Positions 49,569-59,200 of a stretch of 64,000 bases of DNA are shown in pieces. The position numbers were made by a program, and so were the translations under genes. The notes beneath the pieces were generated by a model. The model did not search any database and had not been told where the DNA came from. It was given only the letters and a program-made list of their open reading frames with translations. This stretch comes from Kiritimatiellia bacterium (lineage in GTDB: Bacteria > Verrucomicrobiota > Kiritimatiellia > RFP12 > UBA1067), in contig JAEEOY010000290.1 in the NCBI GenBank assembly GCA_016284515.1, forward strand, positions 1,951 to 65,950. The letters run 5' to 3'. How positions within the stretch are numbered: the first letter of the stretch is position 1; each line of letters opens with the position of its first letter.

Positions 49569-49636
49569 TCTAAAGCATAAAACACCATGAACGGCGACAT
49601 CAAGGCGTACGCGACGCTTGCGGCTTAATTTGCAAC

Positions 49637-52186
49637 ATGGTTCAGACATTCGCATATCCGTTGTCACTCCGCGAGGAGGAGCTGAAAAACAAAGTCGCAG
49701 CCGACTGGTTCGGCGCGTTCGACTGCACACGCATAATCGGGAACATCGACTTCTGCGTCGACCTCCCGGCGACCGAGCTGGCACTCGGCTATGACGCGGA
49801 GCCCATTCTGTGGGCGGAGGCAAAGGCCGGAAACAAGAAGGACATCGTAGCCAGTTTCGTGCAGCTTATCCTGACCATCGGCGGAGGGCACACGGCGGAC
49901 AGGAATCTCCCTCCTCACTTTCTCGGCGCATTCGACGCGGAGAAGATCGCGTTCATCCCATACAATGCCGTGTTAGGCGTTCTCGGGAAGAACGACTTCG
50001 ACTGGACGGTCGCACCGAGCGACCACGAGTCAAAGGAGTTCAAGGAACTCTACACGCTCGCAAAGGGCGTGATAGAGCGTGAGAAGTTGCTGTTCAGATA
50101 TGCGGAGGACGGCGATATTCTGCGGCGGTTCATCAAGTCCAACTTCAAGTCGGGACGCCGCGACATCTCGAAGATACTAATCAACAAGAACAACTTCACG
50201 CACATCTATCGGCAGTGGCGGGAAATCGTCATGCCGTTCATCGACGCGCCGTGGGACGTGCTGAAGAAGAAGTACAACATCTACGACCGGGACTTCTATC
50301 TCGCCGAGATGAACATCGACGACAACGGAACGACCGACATCGCCGACGATCGCGTCGCCAACGACTTCTACATCACGTTCGACGCGAGATCCACGACGCC
50401 GTATACCGTGAAGCGCAAGAACGAGGACGATTTGTTCAATATCCTTGCCTTCGGGTTCAAATCCGGCGGACTCGATGCGTACGCGGAATTCTGGCGCCGT
50501 TACAAGCGTCCGCCGCGCAAAGACTACTGGAACTTCATCGTGAACCGTCTCGACCTCCTTGTGCCGCAGGACGTGCGCGAGCGCAAGGGCTCGTTCTTCA
50601 CGCCGAAAAAATGGGTGGAGCTGTCGCAGCACTATCTCGAGCTGGCGCTTGGCGAAAACTGGCAGGACGAGTATTACGTCTGGGACTGCTGCGCCGGTAC
50701 GGGGAACCTCCTCGCCGGACTCACGAACAAATACCGCATCTGGGCGTCGACCTTGGACCAGCAGGATGTCGACGTGATGCGCGAGCGCGCGAAGAACGGC
50801 GCGAACCTGCTTGAAAGCCACATCTTCCAGTTCGACTTCCTCAACGACTCCTTCGACAGACTGCCGAAGGGCCTCAAGGAAATCATCGACGCCCCCGAAA
50901 AACGCCGTAGACTCGTCATCTACATCAACCCACCGTATGCGGAGGCGGGGGACGCGAAGCAAAGATCCCACACCGGTGCGAACAAGACTGATGTCTCCGT
51001 AGTCCATGCAACCTACGATAAGTATCTCGCAAAAATAGGCATCGCCGGACGAGAGTTGTTTGCGCAGTTCCTCATGCGGATCCACGACGAAATTTCAGAG
51101 TGCATCGTCGGGCAGTTCTCAACGTTGAAACATTTGATGGGCCCGAATTTCAAGTTGTTCCGGCAGGCGTTCCATGGTGCGCTGGCGCGATGCTTCATTA
51201 CGCCCGCCGACACATTCGACAATGTGAAAGGCCAGTTTCCAATTGGCTTCTTTGTGTGGCGGCTGGGAGAAAGATCAACTCCGACTTCTACCGATGGCTT
51301 CGCTAACGCTTCGCCTTCTTTAAACGCCGCAGCGGTAGCGGAGGCTTCGGATAAATCGGAGTTAAAAATTAACGGCGTGTTCACCGAGACGACGGCGGAT
51401 GTGTATGATCGCAAGGGGGAGTTTATTGGAACTAAGACGATCCTTGCGTATGACAATGAACGCTCCATAAACGACTGGCTTATTGAGACCCGGAAGAGAC
51501 CGACAGCGCTCAACCTCGGTTTCCTCTCCTGCCGTTCCCATGATGTGCAACACGTTAACGACATTTTCTTCCGAAACGAGAAGTCTCTCATAAAGTCGGC
51601 CCGAGGCTCGTGGATCACCGATGCCAATCTTGTGGAGGCGTCAGTCTATGTAGCGGTTTGCCATAGCATTGATGCTGACTGGCTGAATGATCGCGACCAG
51701 TTCCTTTTTCCTAATGATGGTTGGAAGGATGATGGGAGATTCCATCTTGATGGTATTGTATACACGCTTTTTGCCAACGCCAACAACATCAAGTCCGCCG
51801 ACGGCGTGAACCACTGGATACCGTTTACAGAAGAGGAGGTTGGAGCGAAGGATTGCTTCAAGAGCCACTTCATGAGCGAATATCTCCGCGTCTTTGCGCC
51901 TCTGCGTGAGAAATTATCCCCCGCTGCTACGTCTGTCCTCGATGCCGGGCGCGAGTTGTGGCGGTACTACCACGCGCAGTTAGGCGCGAATCCCGACGCC
52001 TCCTACTACGACATACGGCTTCACTTCCAGGGCGTGACGACCGACGCGCGGGGCAAGGCGAAGATGAACTCCGACAGCAAGGACGCGAAATACACGGAGC
52101 TCATCGGCAATCTACGCGCCGCGATGAAGCGACTTGCGAAAGAGATCGAACCGAAAGTCTACGAATACGGGTTCTTGAAGAAGTAA
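49637..52186 (+). CDS. type IIG-like restriction-modification protein: N-terminal PD-(D/E)xK-like motif plus gamma-class N6-adenine DNA methyltransferase plus C-terminal specificity-like region
   Basis: D53-x7-E61-A-K63 (YDAEPILWAEAK, 49811-49825). Motif X GSFFTPKKWV. Motif I VWDCCAGTGNLL. Motif IV NPPY (50927-50938). ~400-aa C-terminal region. Confidence 0.7.
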   Translation: MVQTFAYPLSLREEELKNKVAADWFGAFDCTRIIGNIDFCVDLPATELALGYDAEPILWAEAKAGNKKDIVASFVQLILTIGGGHTADRNLPPHFLGAFDAEKIAFIPYNAVLGVLGKNDFDWTVAPSDHESKEFKELYTLAKGVIEREKLLFRYAEDGDILRRFIKSNFKSGRRDISKILINKNNFTHIYRQWREIVMPFIDAPWDVLKKKYNIYDRDFYLAEMNIDDNGTTDIADDRVANDFYITFDARSTTPYTVKRKNEDDLFNILAFGFKSGGLDAYAEFWRRYKRPPRKDYWNFIVNRLDLLVPQDVRERKGSFFTPKKWVELSQHYLELALGENWQDEYYVWDCCAGTGNLLAGLTNKYRIWASTLDQQDVDVMRERAKNGANLLESHIFQFDFLNDSFDRLPKGLKEIIDAPEKRRRLVIYINPPYAEAGDAKQRSHTGANKTDVSVVHATYDKYLAKIGIAGRELFAQFLMRIHDEISECIVGQFSTLKHLMGPNFKLFRQAFHGALARCFITPADTFDNVKGQFPIGFFVWRLGERSTPTSTDGFANASPSLNAAAVAEASDKSELKINGVFTETTADVYDRKGEFIGTKTILAYDNERSINDWLIETRKRPTALNLGFLSCRSHDVQHVNDIFFRNEKSLIKSARGSWITDANLVEASVYVAVCHSIDADWLNDRDQFLFPNDGWKDDGRFHLDGIVYTLFANANNIKSADGVNHWIPFTEEEVGAKDCFKSHFMSEYLRVFAPLREKLSPAATSVLDAGRELWRYYHAQLGANPDASYYDIRLHFQGVTTDARGKAKMNSDSKDAKYTELIGNLRAAMKRLAKEIEPKVYEYGFLKK

Positions 52187-52227
52187 TGACCAACGGCAGA
52201 GGACAAGAAAGGCAATAGACAACAACG

Positions 52228-54873
52228 ATGATGGAGACAATCCAGCATGAGTTGATGCGCGCCTGCCTTATGGGGCTGGCGGCGTCGCTTGCCGTACTTG
52301 CGTTTCGGTCGTCGTTTGTTCGTGGCTCGCTTGCACGGCTGACATTGCTGTGGCGTGGCATGACGACATTCGGACGCGCCGCCGTATGCTCGTTTCTTCT
52401 CGTCGGAATCCTTGTTGGCGGAGACAAAACAAACAACGTCAACAATCTGCCGCCGCAGATTATGCAGGGCGGAGGTTCTTTTGAGACAGGATTTACAGGA
52501 TTGGCAGGATTATCAGCGGCGTTGCTTTACCCGCCATCGTCTCCAAATCCTGTTAATCTTGTTAATCCTGTCCAAAACCAATCCCCCGTCCAAACCACTA
52601 GCGAGGACATCGCTCGCGGATATCGTCAGGTCTGTGTTACGGCAAACGAGAGCGTTTCCTACACCATGCCGACAGGCGCGGCCATAGTTGGCAACTGGCA
52701 CAGACGCGGCACATTTAGCGAGTGGATGCGTCTCGATCTTGGCGGCTTCGCCTTTCCTCTTGGTACGAACGAAACAGCGTATTCGGCGTTCTCCGTTTTC
52801 AACGACGGCAAGATACGTCCCACACCGCGCGATGACGCGCACGAGATTTGCGCTGTAGGTGTTCCGATGCTTGCAATGCAGGGCGCGAGCCGCTTCTGGG
52901 TTGCGGAATGTGATGACGGATCGAAGCTTCTCACATGGGAGAATCTCTTCTTGAATGCCGACACGAACACGCCCGTCAACGCGCAGATACAGCTTTATCC
53001 AAACGGCGGCTTCGCGACTCGTTCAAACGATGTCGAGACAGTCTACGAGCGCATAAATCCGCACGACTGGGACGGGGACGGAAAAGAGAACGGAACCGAC
53101 GCGAATCCGACTGTCTGCGACGGCGACTTCTTTGGGGTGGCAAATGCCTTGCCGACAAACGCAAATCCGGATGCCTACTACTGGCTTGATATTTCGGTGA
53201 CTGGGGTCCTTGGCGTTGCATCTATCAGCATCACATGCGATGGACCGAGCGATCTCGGCGACCATGCGATAATTGCGCGAACGAACGAAGTCTGCCATGT
53301 CCCGCTCCTCGCTGGCGCGACATACGATGTGGAAAGTAATTTGCCGATCTCTCTCTCCACCGTATCAAGCGAGTATGCCACGATTGAAACGAATTCTGAG
53401 AGGTCCTTGACCGTGACTCTGCCGCTTGAGTTTTCGTTTGAGCGAATCCAGATGAGAGGGGCGATGGACGCAGTCAACTACGGCGTGTCATCTTCACCAA
53501 TCAATGTCTTCCCGTCCGTCGTCTCCTGTTCGGGTGGATGTTGCTCCCTTCAAGTTGTAGACGGTGCCCTACGTTGGGTTTGCTCGCCGACATGCACATG
53601 CGGAGGCGCGGATCATCTCCTTGATTCGACGGTGCGCTGGGAAGGGTATTCAACGTCGTTCTTTGGGTATGCCGCGTGCGGGTGCGGTGATGATGCGCCG
53701 GATCCAGTGCCGCAGTCTGGGCCGTATGCCGCGTCGGTTTCTGTCGGTTTCAGCAAGAACGCCGTTATCTTCGAGGATGGATATTTGGATCAACCAGGGC
53801 GGTTTGTCCCGCGAAGATCATCGGCGACGGCACTGACGATCCATGCAAACGGTGGGTCTAACGGCGGCGTTCTGTCTGTGTCTTCTACGAACCTTTCAAA
53901 GCTCCAGAAGAATTCCGGCCCCGCATTCCCCGCACAGTCGATTGCAGTTCCCGCTGACCACTCCATCACATACGAGATGAACTATGTGGGATTGTCGGCG
54001 AGTGATACGACAAACGATGTCGTCGTAAGCGCGACGCTGACGGAAAATGGGACGGGCGCGATCTCTACGAGTGCTGCCTCGGCGACGGTGGTAAAGGTTG
54101 AACTGGAATCGCGCAACACTGCATCTGCGAATAAGGATAGGCATCGGCATACATTTGGCGTCTTAGAGGCATTTGATTATCGGCAATATCCTTCTGATGC
54201 TCCCGTAGCATGGTACTTTTGTGAGGGTGAAACAGAGCTGCTACCTTTTTCCCCTGGGTATATGATATTGAATGCGACAACAAATGAGACATCAGGTGGG
54301 CATTGCGAGTTTCGCGCAACATGCGGGGGTGCGGCATATACCAACGATTTTCTAATGGTGATGCCTCGCATTGAGGTCCAAAACCCGCGATGCAACGAAA
54401 ACCAGACAATGATATACGGTGAGGCAGGGTGGTTATTGCTTCATATGGATTTCCTTGTCGGTCCGTTTTATGTTTCATTCATGGGTGTAGATTTTATGGA
54501 GATACCCGACGAAAGCGGAAATTGCCCACATTCCGGTTATTACAACGATGTCACTAAAGGAGGATATCTCTCACATTGTGCGTTGGCTGGAGCGGGAAAA
54601 TGGAATAGAGTTAACGGGAATGGATATTGGTGCCGAGACATGGCAGGTCGCGCTGGTAGGTATGAGGCACCATGGTCTAATGGCTGGAAGGAATGGCCAA
54701 TTCCAATAGGCTGGGGCATGAATCAGATACTGCTGGGACAGTTTGACGCACCTCCAACAACGCAAAAGTTTACGTTGAGTTCGAATGGGACCTTTACAAT
54801 TCGAAAGTTCTGGTTCGAAGCCACCAGGGGCATTTTAGACGTTCTTCCAACCATAAGGAGAGTCGAGGAATGA
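52228..54873 (+). CDS. 881-aa membrane-anchored/exported protein, unknown family (Cys cluster, TSP3-like Ca-binding motif)
   Basis: N-terminal hydrophobic segments (LMGLAASLAVLAF, AAVCSFLLVGILVGG). DWDGDGKENGTDANP is thrombospondin-type-3-like. Cys-rich block CSGGCCSLQVVDGALRWVCSPTCTCGG..ACGCGDD. Confidence 0.6.
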   Translation: MMETIQHELMRACLMGLAASLAVLAFRSSFVRGSLARLTLLWRGMTTFGRAAVCSFLLVGILVGGDKTNNVNNLPPQIMQGGGSFETGFTGLAGLSAALLYPPSSPNPVNLVNPVQNQSPVQTTSEDIARGYRQVCVTANESVSYTMPTGAAIVGNWHRRGTFSEWMRLDLGGFAFPLGTNETAYSAFSVFNDGKIRPTPRDDAHEICAVGVPMLAMQGASRFWVAECDDGSKLLTWENLFLNADTNTPVNAQIQLYPNGGFATRSNDVETVYERINPHDWDGDGKENGTDANPTVCDGDFFGVANALPTNANPDAYYWLDISVTGVLGVASISITCDGPSDLGDHAIIARTNEVCHVPLLAGATYDVESNLPISLSTVSSEYATIETNSERSLTVTLPLEFSFERIQMRGAMDAVNYGVSSSPINVFPSVVSCSGGCCSLQVVDGALRWVCSPTCTCGGADHLLDSTVRWEGYSTSFFGYAACGCGDDAPDPVPQSGPYAASVSVGFSKNAVIFEDGYLDQPGRFVPRRSSATALTIHANGGSNGGVLSVSSTNLSKLQKNSGPAFPAQSIAVPADHSITYEMNYVGLSASDTTNDVVVSATLTENGTGAISTSAASATVVKVELESRNTASANKDRHRHTFGVLEAFDYRQYPSDAPVAWYFCEGETELLPFSPGYMILNATTNETSGGHCEFRATCGGAAYTNDFLMVMPRIEVQNPRCNENQTMIYGEAGWLLLHMDFLVGPFYVSFMGVDFMEIPDESGNCPHSGYYNDVTKGGYLSHCALAGAGKWNRVNGNGYWCRDMAGRAGRYEAPWSNGWKEWPIPIGWGMNQILLGQFDAPPTTQKFTLSSNGTFTIRKFWFEATRGILDVLPTIRRVEE
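52487..52570. repeat. phased heptamer inverted-repeat array inside a CDS (3x CAGGATT ... 3x AATCYTG, 9-nt period)
   Basis: CAGGATT at 52487, 52496 and 52505. AATCCTG, AATCTTG and AATCCTG at 52546, 52555 and 52564. The 25-nt arms are 21/25 complementary across a 34-nt spacer. 84 nt is exactly 28 codons. Confidence 0.7.
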
Positions 54874-55673
54874 AGAGGAAATTGATAGTGGCCGCCGGAA
54901 TGGTTGTTGCGGTGGTTGGCGGAGTGACGGGCACGGCGCTTTGCCTGTCGCGCTGTCTATCCGTTTCATTTGAATGTCGGGTCGATTTTCTTTATGAGTT
55001 CGACAGGCCGTTCAAGGATGTTCCGGGGCGCGGAACACTCAATGCTGACGAGAGCAATCGTAACTCCCGATATGAGAGTATTTTAGATGACTTCAGGCGC
55101 GATATGCTATTTTGCGCGTCTAAAGACGGGATCATTAGGTGTCAGCGAGACTCGGCCTTTCAGGGCGAACCTGATTCGCGTATCACGGCTGTACTCTCGT
55201 CGGTTCGTCTCGATGTCACAGGAATGCCGAGCACTAACTTCGTATATCCGTGCAGGCTTGTCCTGTCTGATGGCGACAGGAGGGCCCTTGATGTGTATGC
55301 ACGTTTTTGCATGGATAAGGTCAAGGAGCAATTGGAAGAGGAGAACATGATTTCGATTGGCAGGGGTACAACAAGAGAGTTTCAGGTGTTAAAAAAGTCC
55401 GAGAAGAAGATAGAAGAACTCGAGAAAGCCATTGTAAAAGGCGAGGTCTCTCCATCTGTGAAGAATGAGTTGCGTAATGAGAGACGGACTGTCGATGAGA
55501 TGAAAAAGAAGATTGAAGAGATCAAGGAGTTAGTGTTGTCAACGGGCGGGCGGCGTATAATCTATGAGACGCCGCCGGAGATATCGTGGGTTATCCGGCG
55601 CAAATCACGGAAACCCTCGGCTGCCGTGGGCGATATGGCGCATTCACCAGTCTCATCCGAGGAGATGAAATGA
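54870..55673 (+). CDS. N-terminally anchored coiled-coil protein, unknown family
   Basis: ATGA overlap with the upstream stop. AAGGAG at 54855-54860. TM segment LIVAAGMVVAVVGGVTGTAL. Charged coiled coil KKSEKKIEELEKAIVKGE..DEMKKKIEEIKEL. Confidence 0.6.
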   Translation: MKRKLIVAAGMVVAVVGGVTGTALCLSRCLSVSFECRVDFLYEFDRPFKDVPGRGTLNADESNRNSRYESILDDFRRDMLFCASKDGIIRCQRDSAFQGEPDSRITAVLSSVRLDVTGMPSTNFVYPCRLVLSDGDRRALDVYARFCMDKVKEQLEEENMISIGRGTTREFQVLKKSEKKIEELEKAIVKGEVSPSVKNELRNERRTVDEMKKKIEEIKELVLSTGGRRIIYETPPEISWVIRRKSRKPSAAVGDMAHSPVSSEEMK

Positions 55674-56182
55674 GTAGACTGAAATCTTATTTATTCGCTC
55701 CTGCTGCCTTGCTGTGCGCGCTTGCCATGCCGCTCTCTCTCTTGGCTGTGCGGACCGTTGCGCTGCCGTCGCTGCCGACAGGGGAACTGCCCAACAGCGA
55801 GGTCGTGACGAACATTGCGCTTGACGTCAATTCCGAAAGGCTCATTTGCCTGACTTTTTCTCTTGAGCTGGACGCGAGCACGTCGAACGGAGTCTCGATC
55901 GCCGTAGGCGCGGCTGCGGGAGAAACACTGATGCTGGAAGAGGCGGATTTCGAGTGGGGCTACGACTGCGGGAAATGGTTCTACGCCGACACAGCGACCG
56001 GCGAAGTCGAGGAGTGGACAGATGTCTTCACTGGGAGGGTTTCGCGGACATTGTCAATCGCTGGCTGCGACTTCAATCCACTGTGGAATCGACTTAAGAT
56101 CACAAAGCGGGGGACGGGCGATATCGAGATAGATTCGTCGTTGACCGTCGAGAACAAGAAATTTTCAATCAGGCTGCGCTGA
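55670..56182 (+). CDS. small exported protein, unknown family, ending in the KFSIRLR tail
   Basis: ATGA overlap with the upstream stop. Signal peptide MSRLKSYLFAPAALLCALAMPLSLLA. 170 aa. The track ORF 55586 is over-extended. Confidence 0.6.
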   Translation: MSRLKSYLFAPAALLCALAMPLSLLAVRTVALPSLPTGELPNSEVVTNIALDVNSERLICLTFSLELDASTSNGVSIAVGAAAGETLMLEEADFEWGYDCGKWFYADTATGEVEEWTDVFTGRVSRTLSIAGCDFNPLWNRLKITKRGTGDIEIDSSLTVENKKFSIRLR

Positions 56183-56184
56183 TT

Positions 56185-56193
56185 TGATATAAT
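56185..56193 (+). promoter_or_regulatory. extended -10 promoter (TGaTATAAT) driving the RND gene from the island edge
   Basis: Starts 3 nt after the island's last stop codon. ATG 56207 is 13 nt downstream. Confidence 0.5.
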
Positions 56194-56206
56194 AAGAGGC
56201 ACAATC

Positions 56207-59200
56207 ATGAAATTATCGTTAAGAAAATCCATTGACGAGATAAAGACGTTCTCGAGGATCTTCGTGGAGCGTCCGCGCTTCGCGATGGTCATCGCGATCG
56301 TGCTGTCCATGGCCGGCACGATGTCGATCTTCAACCTGCCCGTCACGCAGTATCCGCGCGTGACGCCTCCTTCGATACAGGTGAGCTACAACTATCCGGG
56401 CGCAAACGCGAAGGAGGTGCTGAACACCGTCGCGATGCCGCTCGAGGACGAGGTGAACGGCGTGGACGACATGCTCTACATGACGGGCCAGTGCGGCGAC
56501 GACGGAAGCTACTCGCTCAACGTCTCGTTCGAGGTCGAGTCTGACCGCGACATGGACCAGGTCAAGGTGCAGAACCGCGTCGTGCAGGCGGAGCCGAAGC
56601 TCCCCGCGGAGGTCAGACAGCTCGGCGGACGAATCCGCGCGCAGAACTCCGACATGCTCGGCTTCATCGCGGTACGCTCGCCGAACGGGACGCTCTCGCG
56701 CCTGCAGATATCCGACTACATCTACGCTAACATCCAGCCGGTGCTCCTGCGAGTCCCGGGCGTGGGCGACGCGACGGTGTACGGTCCGAAGCTCTCGATG
56801 CGCGTCTGGCTCGACCCCGCGCGCATGGCCGCGCAGGGAATGAACACCGAGGAGGTGATGGCGGCGGTCTCGAAGCAGAACATCCAGGCCTCGCTCGGAT
56901 CCGTCGGCGCGGCGCCCACGGGCGGACACGCCGCGTGGACGATGTCGCTCCTCGCGAAGGGACGCCTCATGTCCGCGAAGGAGTTCGACGACATCGTCGT
57001 GCGGCGCGACGCGAACGGAGGCGTCGTGCGCCTGAAGGACATCGCGCGCACGGAAATCGGCGAGCAGAACTACATGTTCACCGGACAGCTCAACGGCGGG
57101 AACGCCGTCTCGATCGCTCTCCAGCAGAAGCCGGGCGCGAACGCCATCGCGACGATGAAGGCGATACGCAAGGCGATGGCGCAGCTCGAGGAGGCGTTCC
57201 CGGACGACCTCGAGTGGGTCATCCCCTACGATGCGACGGACTACGTGAGCACGTGCATCGACGAGATCGTGTACACGCTGCTCATCACGTTCGGACTCGT
57301 CGTGCTCGTCTGCTACCTGTTCCTGCAGGACTGGCGCGCGACGCTGATTCCGTGCCTCACCATCCCCGTGTCGCTTTCCTCGACGTTCATCCTGATGGCC
57401 TTCCTCGGCTACTCGATCAACATCCTCACTCTGTTCGGACTCGTCCTCGCGATCGGCGTCGTGGTAGACGACTGCATCGTCGTGGTGGAGCGCGTCCAGT
57501 TCCTCATCGAGACGCGCGGCCTCAACTCGAAGGAGGCGGCGATCCAGGCGATGAGCGACGTGACCTCCGCCGTCATCGCGACGACGCTCGTCCTTCTCGG
57601 CATCTTCGTCCCCGTCGGCTTCATGAGCGGCATCACCGGACGCATCTACCAGCAGTTCTCCGTGACGCTCTCCGCTGCGGTCTGCTTCTCGACCGTGTGC
57701 GCGCTCACGCTCGCGCCGGCGCTCTGCTCGCTCATCCTGCACGAGGCGAGGCCCTACAAGCACGGACCTCTCGCGTGGTTCAACTGGGCGATCAACTCGT
57801 TCAAGGGACTCTTCGTCAGGCTCGCGAAGTGGCTTGCGTCGCGCATCTTCCTTGCGCTCGCGCTCCTCGTGCTCACGGTCCTGCTGACCGTCCAGATGTT
57901 CCGCTCGACGCAGACGGCGTTCCTCCCCGAGGAGGACCAGTGCGTCGTCTTCGCATCCATGGAGATGCCCGAGGGATCGACCCGCGACCGCACGCGCGAC
58001 GTGTCGCTCCGCGCAGTTGATCTCCTCCTCAAGGTCCCCGAGGTGCGCAGCGTCCTCACGATCACCGGCTTCTCGATGGTCGGCGGACGCGGCGAGAACC
58101 AGTCGATGGTCATCATCGACCTCAAGGACTGGTCGGAGCGCAAGGGCAAGGACCAGAGCGCCGCGGCGATGGTGCAGAAGCTGCAGGCCTACCTCGCGCA
58201 GGTCCCGGAGCCGAACTGGAAGGTGTTCATGCCTCCGGCCATCCCCGGACTCGGCATGACGAACGGAATCAGCGTCGACCTCCAGGACAAGGGCACGGCG
58301 GATCCGATCCGCATGGACGGTGTGAAGAACCGCGTCCTCGCCGAGCTCAACGACAAGACGAAGCATCCTGACATCATGGTCGCGTACTCGGGCTACAACG
58401 CCGTCACGCCGCACCTCCGCTTCAACCTCGACCGCGTGAAGGCCGAGATGTACAAGGTGCCGGTAGCGACGGTCTACTCGACGCTGCAGAACTACCTCGG
58501 CTCGCGCTACGTAAACGACGTCAACCTCGGTACGCAGGTGAACCGCGTGACGGTTCAGGCAGACTGGGACGGACGCGCCACGCCCGAGGCCGTCTCGCGC
58601 CTCTACGTGCGCGGCGAGAACGGGGCGATGGTGCAGATCGGCTCGCTCGGTGACATCACGCGCGAACTCGGTCCGCGCACGGTCTACACGCGCGACAAGT
58701 ACGTCTCGTGCGGCATAACCGTGATGCCGATGCCCGGCGTCGCATCCGGCAAGATCATGAACGACCTCAGGCAGGTCTTCAGGGACGTCCTTCCGGAGGA
58801 CTACGGATACGACTGGGCGGCGCTCTCCTTCCAGGAGGCGCGCAACGAGGGCGGCGCGGCGCCGCTCATCGCGCTCGCGATTCTGTTCGGATACCTCTTC
58901 CTCGTCGCGCAGTACGAGTCGTGGACGATTCCGCTCCCCGTGATGCTCTCGATCTTCGTCGCCGTGTTCGGCGCGCTGTGCGGACTCAAGTGGTTCGGCA
59001 TCTGGATGACGGGCTCGCCGTATCCGCTGTCGATATACGCGCAGCTCGGCCTCGTCCTTCTCGTCGGCCTTGCCTCCAAGAATGCGATCTTGATCGTCGA
59101 GTTCGCGAAGGACAAGCGCGAGAACGAGGGCTACTCGATCGCGGACGCCGCGGGCGCGGCGGCTGGCGAGCGTCTCAGGGCGCTTTTGATGACGGCCTTG

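Follow-up and report, generated by a model that had tools for sequence, protein, structure and literature searches.

An in-frame hairpin in the gene of an 881-residue Kiritimatiellia protein belongs to a dispersed repeat family with a nuclease-bearing form

Short dispersed palindromes that often lie in frame within genes, where they add a peptide without destroying the protein, and that also occur between genes, have been described as Rickettsia palindromic elements (PMC10969869). [quoted passage not shown] In repetitive extragenic palindromic (REP) sequences and REP doublets forming hairpins (REPINs) the palindrome head is defined as GTAG or CGTC (PMC3733652). The window analysed here is a stretch of 64,000 nucleotides (nt) from a Kiritimatiellia bacterium (contig JAEEOY010000290.1 of assembly GCA_016284515.1, which comprises 3.86 Mb at 61.6% G+C; the contig is C264 in the numbering used below). 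At positions 52477-52578 of this window, in frame within the gene of an 881-amino-acid (aa) protein (52228..54873, plus strand), lies a hairpin array of 9-nt units, with an element size of about 100 nt and 26-nt terminal inverted repeats. This array is a gene-less member of a family of hairpins armed with the core ACAGGATT, the gene-bearing form of which is a GxxExxY nuclease cassette.

The initial annotation, which was made from the window alone, had placed three copies of CAGGATT at 52487, 52496 and 52505, and three reverse-complement copies, AATC(C/T)TG, at 52546, 52555 and 52564, with a strict period of 9 nt throughout. Re-reading of the letters gave the same positions and period, the reverse-complement copies being AATCCTG, AATCTTG and AATCCTG in turn, together with the same 25-nt arms, complementary at 21 of 25 positions around a 34-nt spacer. 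The length of the coding unit had to be corrected, from 84 nt (28 codons) to a codon-aligned stretch of 87 nt (29 codons) at 52486-52572. The repeat unit consists of the 8-nt core ACAGGATT and one variable base; hence the arms are 26 nt long, and both fit the family pattern with one mismatch each. On the plus strand, the left arm, or T-type end (52486..52511), reads ACAGGATT-T-ACAGGATT-G-GCAGGATT and is translated as TGF TGL AGL. It is followed by the 34-nt loop (52512..52545), read as SAALLYPPSSP, which among homologues is 12-34 nt long or replaced. The right arm, the A-type end in reverse complement (52546..52571), reads AATCCTGT-T-AATCTTGT-T-AATCCTGT and is translated as NPV NLV NPV, so that, as had been pointed out, the two arms are read in different codon phases. 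The left terminus (52477..52485, plus strand) is the T-run TCTTTT followed by GAG, where the non-coding consensus of the family has TTTTT-TAG, and the right terminus (52572..52578, plus strand) is C-CAA-AAC, where the consensus has C-TAA-AAA. The palindrome extends into the T-run at 52477-52482 and the A-run at 52573-52578, and weaker pairing reaches 41-nt arms (52471-52511 with 52546-52586, 76% complementary). Two-unit arrays with at most two mismatches were found four times in the window, every one of them at this site, against a chance expectation of 0.17; none of 100 shuffled sequences reached four. In the folding test that had been proposed, RNA from 52480 to 52577 gave -45.5 kcal/mol, compared to -19.7 ± 3.1 kcal/mol for shuffled sequences (z = -8.2), and none of the 200 shuffles folded as well.

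Spacer and polarity statistics were obtained from 37 tight hairpins of 11 genomes. Core positions were complementary between the arms in 93% of cases; the outer spacer bases were complementary in one of the 37 hairpins and the inner ones in none. The outer spacer was nearly always T on one arm and A or G on the other. Since the spacers are unpaired and biased in this way, the two ends of the element can be distinguished and the element has a polarity. The spacers of the window copy (T/A and G/A) conform to this polarity, and its T-type arm lies on the 5' side of the host gene, an orientation that is inverted relative to that of the nuclease gene. The predicted stem would consist of 8-bp helices broken by regular 1x1 mismatches; each arm consists of three ACAGGATT cores, and the single bases that split them would be non-complementary by design. 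A search with the Rfam covariance models gave no match in 52200-52800 at E values up to 1. Neither a promoter nor an intrinsic terminator was found, the T-run before the stem and the A-run after it being the reverse of a terminator. Phase variation through unit number was also rejected, because changes in the number of 9-nt units leave the frame intact.

Searching the genome for further arrays, as the initial annotation had advised, located the three-unit arm about 21 times on 11 contigs (at most five mismatches). Some of these copies are tight hairpins and others are arm pairs 170-420 bp apart. The arm pattern (at most two mismatches) was present in 80 of the 117 genomes of the genus, these relatives being incomplete metagenome assemblies, with up to about 60 half-sites each; a control search with the reversed pattern gave no match in any genome of the genus. 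Among 201 genomes sampled over the phylum, 19 had the arm pattern, some of these belonging to other classes. The non-coding consensus is TTTTT-TAG-(ACAGGATT-N)x3 ... (N-AATCCTGT)x3-C-TAA-AAAA, and the non-coding copies of this genome read TTTT-TAG-ACAGG at the left end.

The gene-bearing form was represented by a full-length copy at C28:17310-17752, in which the arms enclose a 138-aa ORF (C28:17340-17753) of the GxxExxY nuclease type (about 130 aa). The ORF product matched TIGR04256 (GxxExxY, 6.8e-42) and PF13366 (PD-(D/E)XK, 1.7e-40), the latter listed as a family of function unknown (PMC3424549). The C-terminus of this nuclease, NPVNPVNPV, and its TAA stop codon are the right arm and terminus themselves. 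A close cognate nuclease, defined by at least 64% identity to the ACAGGATT-armed nuclease, was detected in 14 of the 117 genomes of the genus. When 12 nuclease loci from 12 genomes were compared, both arms were found around the gene, about 415 bp apart, in 11; at the twelfth (L092) the nuclease gene is broken by a stop and the right arm alone is present. Strict co-occurrence of nuclease and repeat in the genus was rejected, since arms were present in 80 of the 117 genomes and the close nuclease in 14, albeit in incomplete assemblies. No published description of hairpin-bounded GxxExxY nuclease cassettes was found. Taken together, the PD-(D/E)XK GxxExxY gene and its flanking arms, which are tandem 8-mers whose spacers are obligatorily unpaired, might represent a class of mobile element that is apparently undescribed.

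The remaining three GxxExxY genes of the genome bear other arm types. Inverted 9-nt units of a GGAGTYT type lie on either side of the gene at C171:24357-24707, and long direct repeats on either side of that at C28:15566-15910; every lineage of the nuclease seems to be paired with a distinct type of arm. In a separate observation on C28 (17262-19409; L086, ~1941-1989 and its neighbours), mini-ORFs such as MNMRKRFALGNAGRFL stop exactly at the left-terminus TAG of successive hairpins. They resemble N-terminal fragments that were left stranded, or else short leader ORFs that are capped by the stop of the element.

Each arm of the element has a stop-free frame, ACA GGA TTN in the left arm and AAT CCT GTN in the right arm, and the right arm of all in-frame copies in the genome is read as AAT CCT GTN. 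In these same frames the left arm of every non-coding copy is preceded by TAG and its right arm is followed by TAA. In coding copies TAG is replaced by GAG, CAG, TTG or AAG and TAA by CAA, CAG, TTA or AAG; in the window copy the replacements of the two terminal stops are GAG on the left and CAA on the right. Survival within a coding region probably rests on three properties of the element: the 9-nt unit maintains the reading frame, one frame of each arm is incapable of holding a stop, and the consensus-end stops TAG and TAA are changed, here to GAG and CAA. The disordered tether between the anchor and the body of the host protein would accept the added residues, and the peptide TGFTGLAGL...NPVNLVNPV would be a passenger.

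At least five long ORFs of the genome contain an in-frame copy. A short one (TGFTGL…NLVNPV; C12:5591-5645) lies about 515 residues into a 1650-aa ORF. Another (TGLTGLTGL…NLVNPVNPV; C28:14619-14701) lies in a 709-aa frame, in the inter-domain linker of a membrane transporter-acyltransferase fusion, and a further copy is in a 1000-aa open frame on C175. The copy at C75:34983-35042 (L098), read as …FFGQDLQDLQDSENNPDNPVNPVLK…, lies in a 727-aa glycoside-hydrolase-like frame. This enzyme is conserved, and the orthologues from four further species of the genus, with 66-74% identity over the region, are without exactly the 17-21 residues that the hairpin encodes, so that the copy is a clean insertion confined to one species. 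Since the C75 copy is missing from all four orthologues, the repeat family inserts into genes. The 1650-aa ORF has a domain in common with the 881-aa protein (residues 122-265).

The segment in the host gene also behaved as an indel, a status that the initial annotation had proposed to examine: the segment was absent from nine of 24 aligned homologues. The hairpin-less homologues have 17-25 residues from the invariant KTN to a DIxRGY/W motif, and the remainder carry the hairpin between these two points. It had further been argued that the symmetry reflects a constraint on DNA or RNA and not a peptide repeat, and the homologues agreed with this, in that the peptide is kept with the same atypical codons and not with unrelated ones. 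Codon usage was determined for 22 coding hairpins, arms and loops, in homologous genes of other species, which are related by descent and are not independent events; the baseline was provided by long six-frame ORFs of the genome, which are not curated genes. Threonine was encoded by ACA in 76 of 78 hairpin codons (9.6% in the genome), asparagine by AAT in 59 of 67 (23%), leucine by TTA or TTG in 47 of 93 (4%) and phenylalanine by TTT in 38 of 46 (15%). At four-fold degenerate sites under identical residues, the host gene and 13 homologous genes had the same base at 61/66 arm sites (in Thr, Gly and Pro codons), compared to 413/1045 body sites (0.40) and 24/67 leader sites. The fixed atypical codons and the agreement at synonymous sites mean that the conserved entity at the hairpin is DNA rather than peptide.

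The hairpin was also found to be part of a module that is shared by a large paralogous family. Of the 117 genomes of the genus, 35 had a leader, KTNNVPPNMNxPQMQxGGxF, followed by the hairpin; the ORFs concerned are 700-1000 aa long, and a single genome has as many as 18 of them. In arm-rich genomes about half of all arms lie inside such leader-hairpin genes, so that much of the copy number there is due to gene duplication. The leader and hairpin precede two unrelated bodies, beginning ...DIxRGWRVES... and ...NSFAERKAANWN..., respectively. Residues identical to the host gene were counted module by module. For three genes with the second body (L066, L063 and L064) they amounted to 24-30/45 in the N-terminus and 21-25/30 in the hairpin, followed by 7-8/60 in the next 60 residues and 28-35/140 in residues 60-200. 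For three genes with the same body (L034, L038 and L003) the corresponding values were 4-8/45, 12-15/30, 31-33/60 and 95-97/140. The similarity switches between modules where the hairpin ends on its right side. A tree of 83 bodies, from a quick maximum-likelihood search over the first 400 body residues, required 19 changes of hairpin state and 20 changes of N-terminal type. N-terminal modules have been reassorted against bodies among these paralogues.

The linker itself was variable among 120 homologues, in which it has no hairpin, hairpins of two, three or four units, a left arm only, a right arm only, or a replaced loop. Over the 35 genomes with the leader and hairpin, dozens of paralogues have the hairpin at this site, whole, shortened, halved or nested. 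A second hairpin family, built of GTTGGAG units, lies within the ACAGGATT hairpin of paralogous genes from two other genomes, at the same linker site (L079 at G087:C10:17900-18900, minus strand, and L076 at G105:C3:10700-11700). The nested hairpin is in frame, read as ...SSSWRNENS(T/I)LQLQL..., and the two copies fold at -63 and -46 kcal/mol. In the window, the right-arm end AATCCTGTCCAAAAC recurs in decayed form, as AATCCCCCGTCCAAACC, directly after the hairpin at 52580..52596 (plus strand), where it is read within QSPVQTT. The same arrangement, NPVQN + QSPVQTT, was seen in the close homologues P0002, P0003, P0012 and P0041, and a variant, NPVQN + NIPVQTT or NIPVQIT, in P0034, P0019, P0039, P0042 and P0050; the second body family has the mirror arrangement NPVQTT + PAQN. 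Judged from these arrangements, AATCCCCCGTCCAAACC is probably what is left of a hairpin end that resided here earlier, and it fits replacement or nested re-insertion.

The 881-aa host protein begins with membrane helices, between which and a beta-sandwich, immunoglobulin (Ig)-like body lies a disordered tether. An AlphaFold model was built with a 24-sequence alignment and had three N-terminal helices in residues 2-64 and a beta-rich body at a predicted local distance difference test (pLDDT) score of 70-90. Residues 58-131 had a pLDDT below 50, and residues 61-130 were modelled without secondary structure at 23-39. In the model the hairpin peptide, residues 87-115, falls in the middle of the disordered tether, consistent with the earlier placement of this stretch between the N-terminal anchor and the body. 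In a Foldseek search the body resembled tandem Ig-like, macroglobulin-like, invasin and S-layer chains at low TM-scores of 0.1-0.2. There were 411 detectable homologues of the protein, mostly unnamed metagenome proteins, a few of which were labelled Kiritimatiellae. Neither the host protein nor the products of the two downstream genes belonged to a Pfam, NCBIfam or PADLOC family.

The gene upstream of the host gene is an 849-aa ORF (49637-52186, plus strand) with DCCAGTGNL and IYINPPY motifs. The initial annotation had named this gene a methyltransferase, and that assignment held in part: weak profile matches (E 0.002-0.005) and the DCCAGTG and NPPY motifs spoke for it, but there was no family-level match, with no Pfam or PADLOC family and no relative in the PDB by sequence. 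The product is plausibly a divergent protein similar to N6-adenine methyltransferases, possibly fused to other domains. The conserved neighbour of the host gene family is a different one, the gene of a family-less 170-aa protein (55670-56182, plus strand) two genes downstream of the host gene, whose homologues (about 40% identity) are encoded in other genomes immediately upstream of genes homologous to the 881-aa one (L028, L029 and L030, ~935-1342). Separately, the four-gene stretch at 49569-56248 has 53.6% G+C, compared to 63-65% on either side, and splits a set of efflux-pump genes, with an AcrB-family gene beginning at 56207. This fits an inserted island.

The hairpin in the window is probably a gene-less selfish repeat that became fixed in a tolerant linker, where it is carried as a passenger and was reshuffled together with the N-terminal module. 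The element would have entered the linker of an ancestral family member and later spread with that module through gene duplication and recombination among paralogues. Replacement, gene conversion or nested re-insertion in hairpins already present may have held its arms near the consensus, and the hairpin would have no dedicated host function. Several observations weigh against this explanation. There was no clean, base-exact empty site for the host gene, the hairpin-less homologues differing in the adjacent linker as well. No target-site duplication was seen and no direct repeat flanks the window copy, at which the only duplication is the decayed right end, on the same side; the position of the C75 insertion is approximate. 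Intact hairpins were present in many paralogues from genomes without a detected close cognate nuclease (for example G087, G088, G102 and G071, incomplete assemblies), and nuclease-driven renewal is therefore not the whole story. The arms are strongly conserved against saturated surroundings, which could mean purifying selection for a host function. Finally, in these related sequences the non-Watson-Crick core positions are mostly sense-strand G-U pairs (36, compared to 8 A-C), a weak hint at pairing in the sense strand that comes from a count of pair types in cores that hardly vary.

Host functions for the hairpin have to be weighed against this background. That the repeat has been domesticated at the junction of anchor and body, for cassette exchange at the DNA level or for a translation pause at the RNA level, and so drives surface diversification in gut and rumen Kiritimatiellae, is a doubtful possibility. 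Taken by itself, the DNA-level version, in which the hairpin is kept as a recombination junction for exchange of anchors and ectodomains that diversifies a surface-protein family, maybe through a cruciform or a lagging-strand hairpin, is unlikely. The mosaic structure of the family agrees with it, in that the N-terminus and hairpin of the host gene match genes with an unrelated body, its body matches genes whose N-terminus differs, the changeover lies at the right hairpin end, and the body tree demands the 20 changes of N-terminal type and 19 of hairpin state. Duplicated relic ends beside the hairpin in both body families, and as many as 18 leader-plus-hairpin genes in a single genome, agree with it as well. 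However, the conserved leader DNA upstream (KTNNVPPNMN...) and the DIxRGW motif downstream are equally suited to homologous exchange, and the breakpoint was placed no more closely than to some tens of bases. Decayed or half hairpins are common (21/83), against strict retention, and the mosaicism may result from the hairpin instead of explaining its upkeep. The RNA-level version is improbable. It holds that the roughly 30-bp stem, three AGGA motifs and a rare-codon run located 20-50 codons past the anchor set expression, either by ribosome pausing during anchor targeting, which is again improbable, or, no less so, by attracting a double-strand-specific RNase. The fold of -45.5 kcal/mol (z = -8.2), the hairpins of the paralogues (-14.7 to -46.5 kcal/mol), the family-wide constant place right after the anchor helices, the rare codons in the arms and the G-U bias (36 versus 8) would all be expected of such a role. 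Yet the element is also found between genes, and in mid-protein in the unrelated glycoside-hydrolase-like enzyme, the transporter-acyltransferase fusion and the 1650-aa protein. Moreover, many paralogues have lost one arm or most of the pairing with the frame still open, and systematically unpaired spacers are unlike the outcome of selection for a stem.

Two further explanations account for less of the data. Because the TGF/TGL and NPV/NLV repeats are widespread in the family and always follow the conserved leader, they might be taken for a selected sorting, glycosylation or spacer motif, the symmetry of the DNA being incidental. This is very improbable: the codons are fixed and atypical instead of free, the same DNA lies between genes and around the nuclease gene, and the peptide is absent from nine of the 24 aligned homologues. 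In addition, the region is predicted to be disordered, and the number of units, the loop and even the presence of one of the arms vary freely. Selection at the peptide level was rejected on the codon usage and synonymous-site tests. The proposal that the array is a binding or modification site tied to the upstream methyltransferase-like gene is scarcely credible. The motifs and weak profile matches of the 849-aa ORF, and its end 41 nt upstream of the host gene, would suit such a link. However, no homologue of this ORF lies beside hairpin-bearing homologues of the host gene in other genomes, and the repeat is dispersed over 80 of the 117 genomes of the genus and beyond. The functional connection between the hairpin and its neighbour that the initial annotation had suggested was accordingly abandoned.

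The window hairpin is a clear instance, from outside Rickettsia, of a palindromic repeat that resides in genes and is translated. Its 9-nt units, a stop-proof frame in each arm and the loss of two terminal stops explain how such a repeat survives within a gene. A single insertion can spread across a whole surface-protein family and mark the point at which its modules are reshuffled, which bears on surface variation of gut and rumen bacteria. If the domesticated role were true, a codon-phased mobile hairpin would drive the diversification of the cell surface in gut and rumen Kiritimatiellae. For annotation, no protein motif is to be seen in the TGF/TGL...NPV/NLV peptide. This family of repeats, the nuclease that goes with it and the never-paired spacers seem to be without a published description, and the unpaired spacers suggest a specific recognition mechanism.

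Integron attC sites are imperfect palindromes with RYYYAAC and GTTRRRY core sites, which are not matched by the TTTAGAC and GTCTAAA ends of the present element. REP and REPIN sequences and their REP-associated tyrosine transposases (RAYTs) share with it the inverted hairpin doublets, a single-copy gene between repeats of its own type, and gene-less copies that are far commoner than the gene. REP sequences, however, are extragenic, whereas copies of the window family are often intragenic. Membership was rejected because the ends read TTTT(T/G)AG-ACAGGATT, with no GTAG or CGTC head, and because none of the six PF01797 Y1-transposase-like genes of the genome has a ACAGGATT arm within 2.5 kb. Like MITEs, the family is small, has terminal inverted repeats and in-frame host fusions, and its gene-less copies outnumber the gene-bearing ones. 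In contrast to MITEs, its gene-bearing form encodes just the GxxExxY PD-(D/E)XK protein and no known transposase, and no target-site duplication was seen, so that membership in the strict sense is not supported.

The likeness to Rickettsia palindromic elements, which the initial annotation had listed first among its possibilities, was supported by the dispersed family, the indel, the in-frame copies and the C75 insertion. The window family behaves like these elements in being inserted in frame in ORFs, where it adds a peptide, and in lying also between genes; the claim is one of like behaviour and not of membership. The window family differs in occurring in Kiritimatiellae, in another phylum, in having arms of three codon-phased 9-nt units with unpaired spacers, in having a recognisable full-length form that carries a GxxExxY nuclease gene, and in having consensus-end stops that must mutate in coding copies. 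With the hairpin-bounded GxxExxY cassettes the window copy has its arms in common, and it differs from them in being internal to a gene and common to a large paralogous family at one site.

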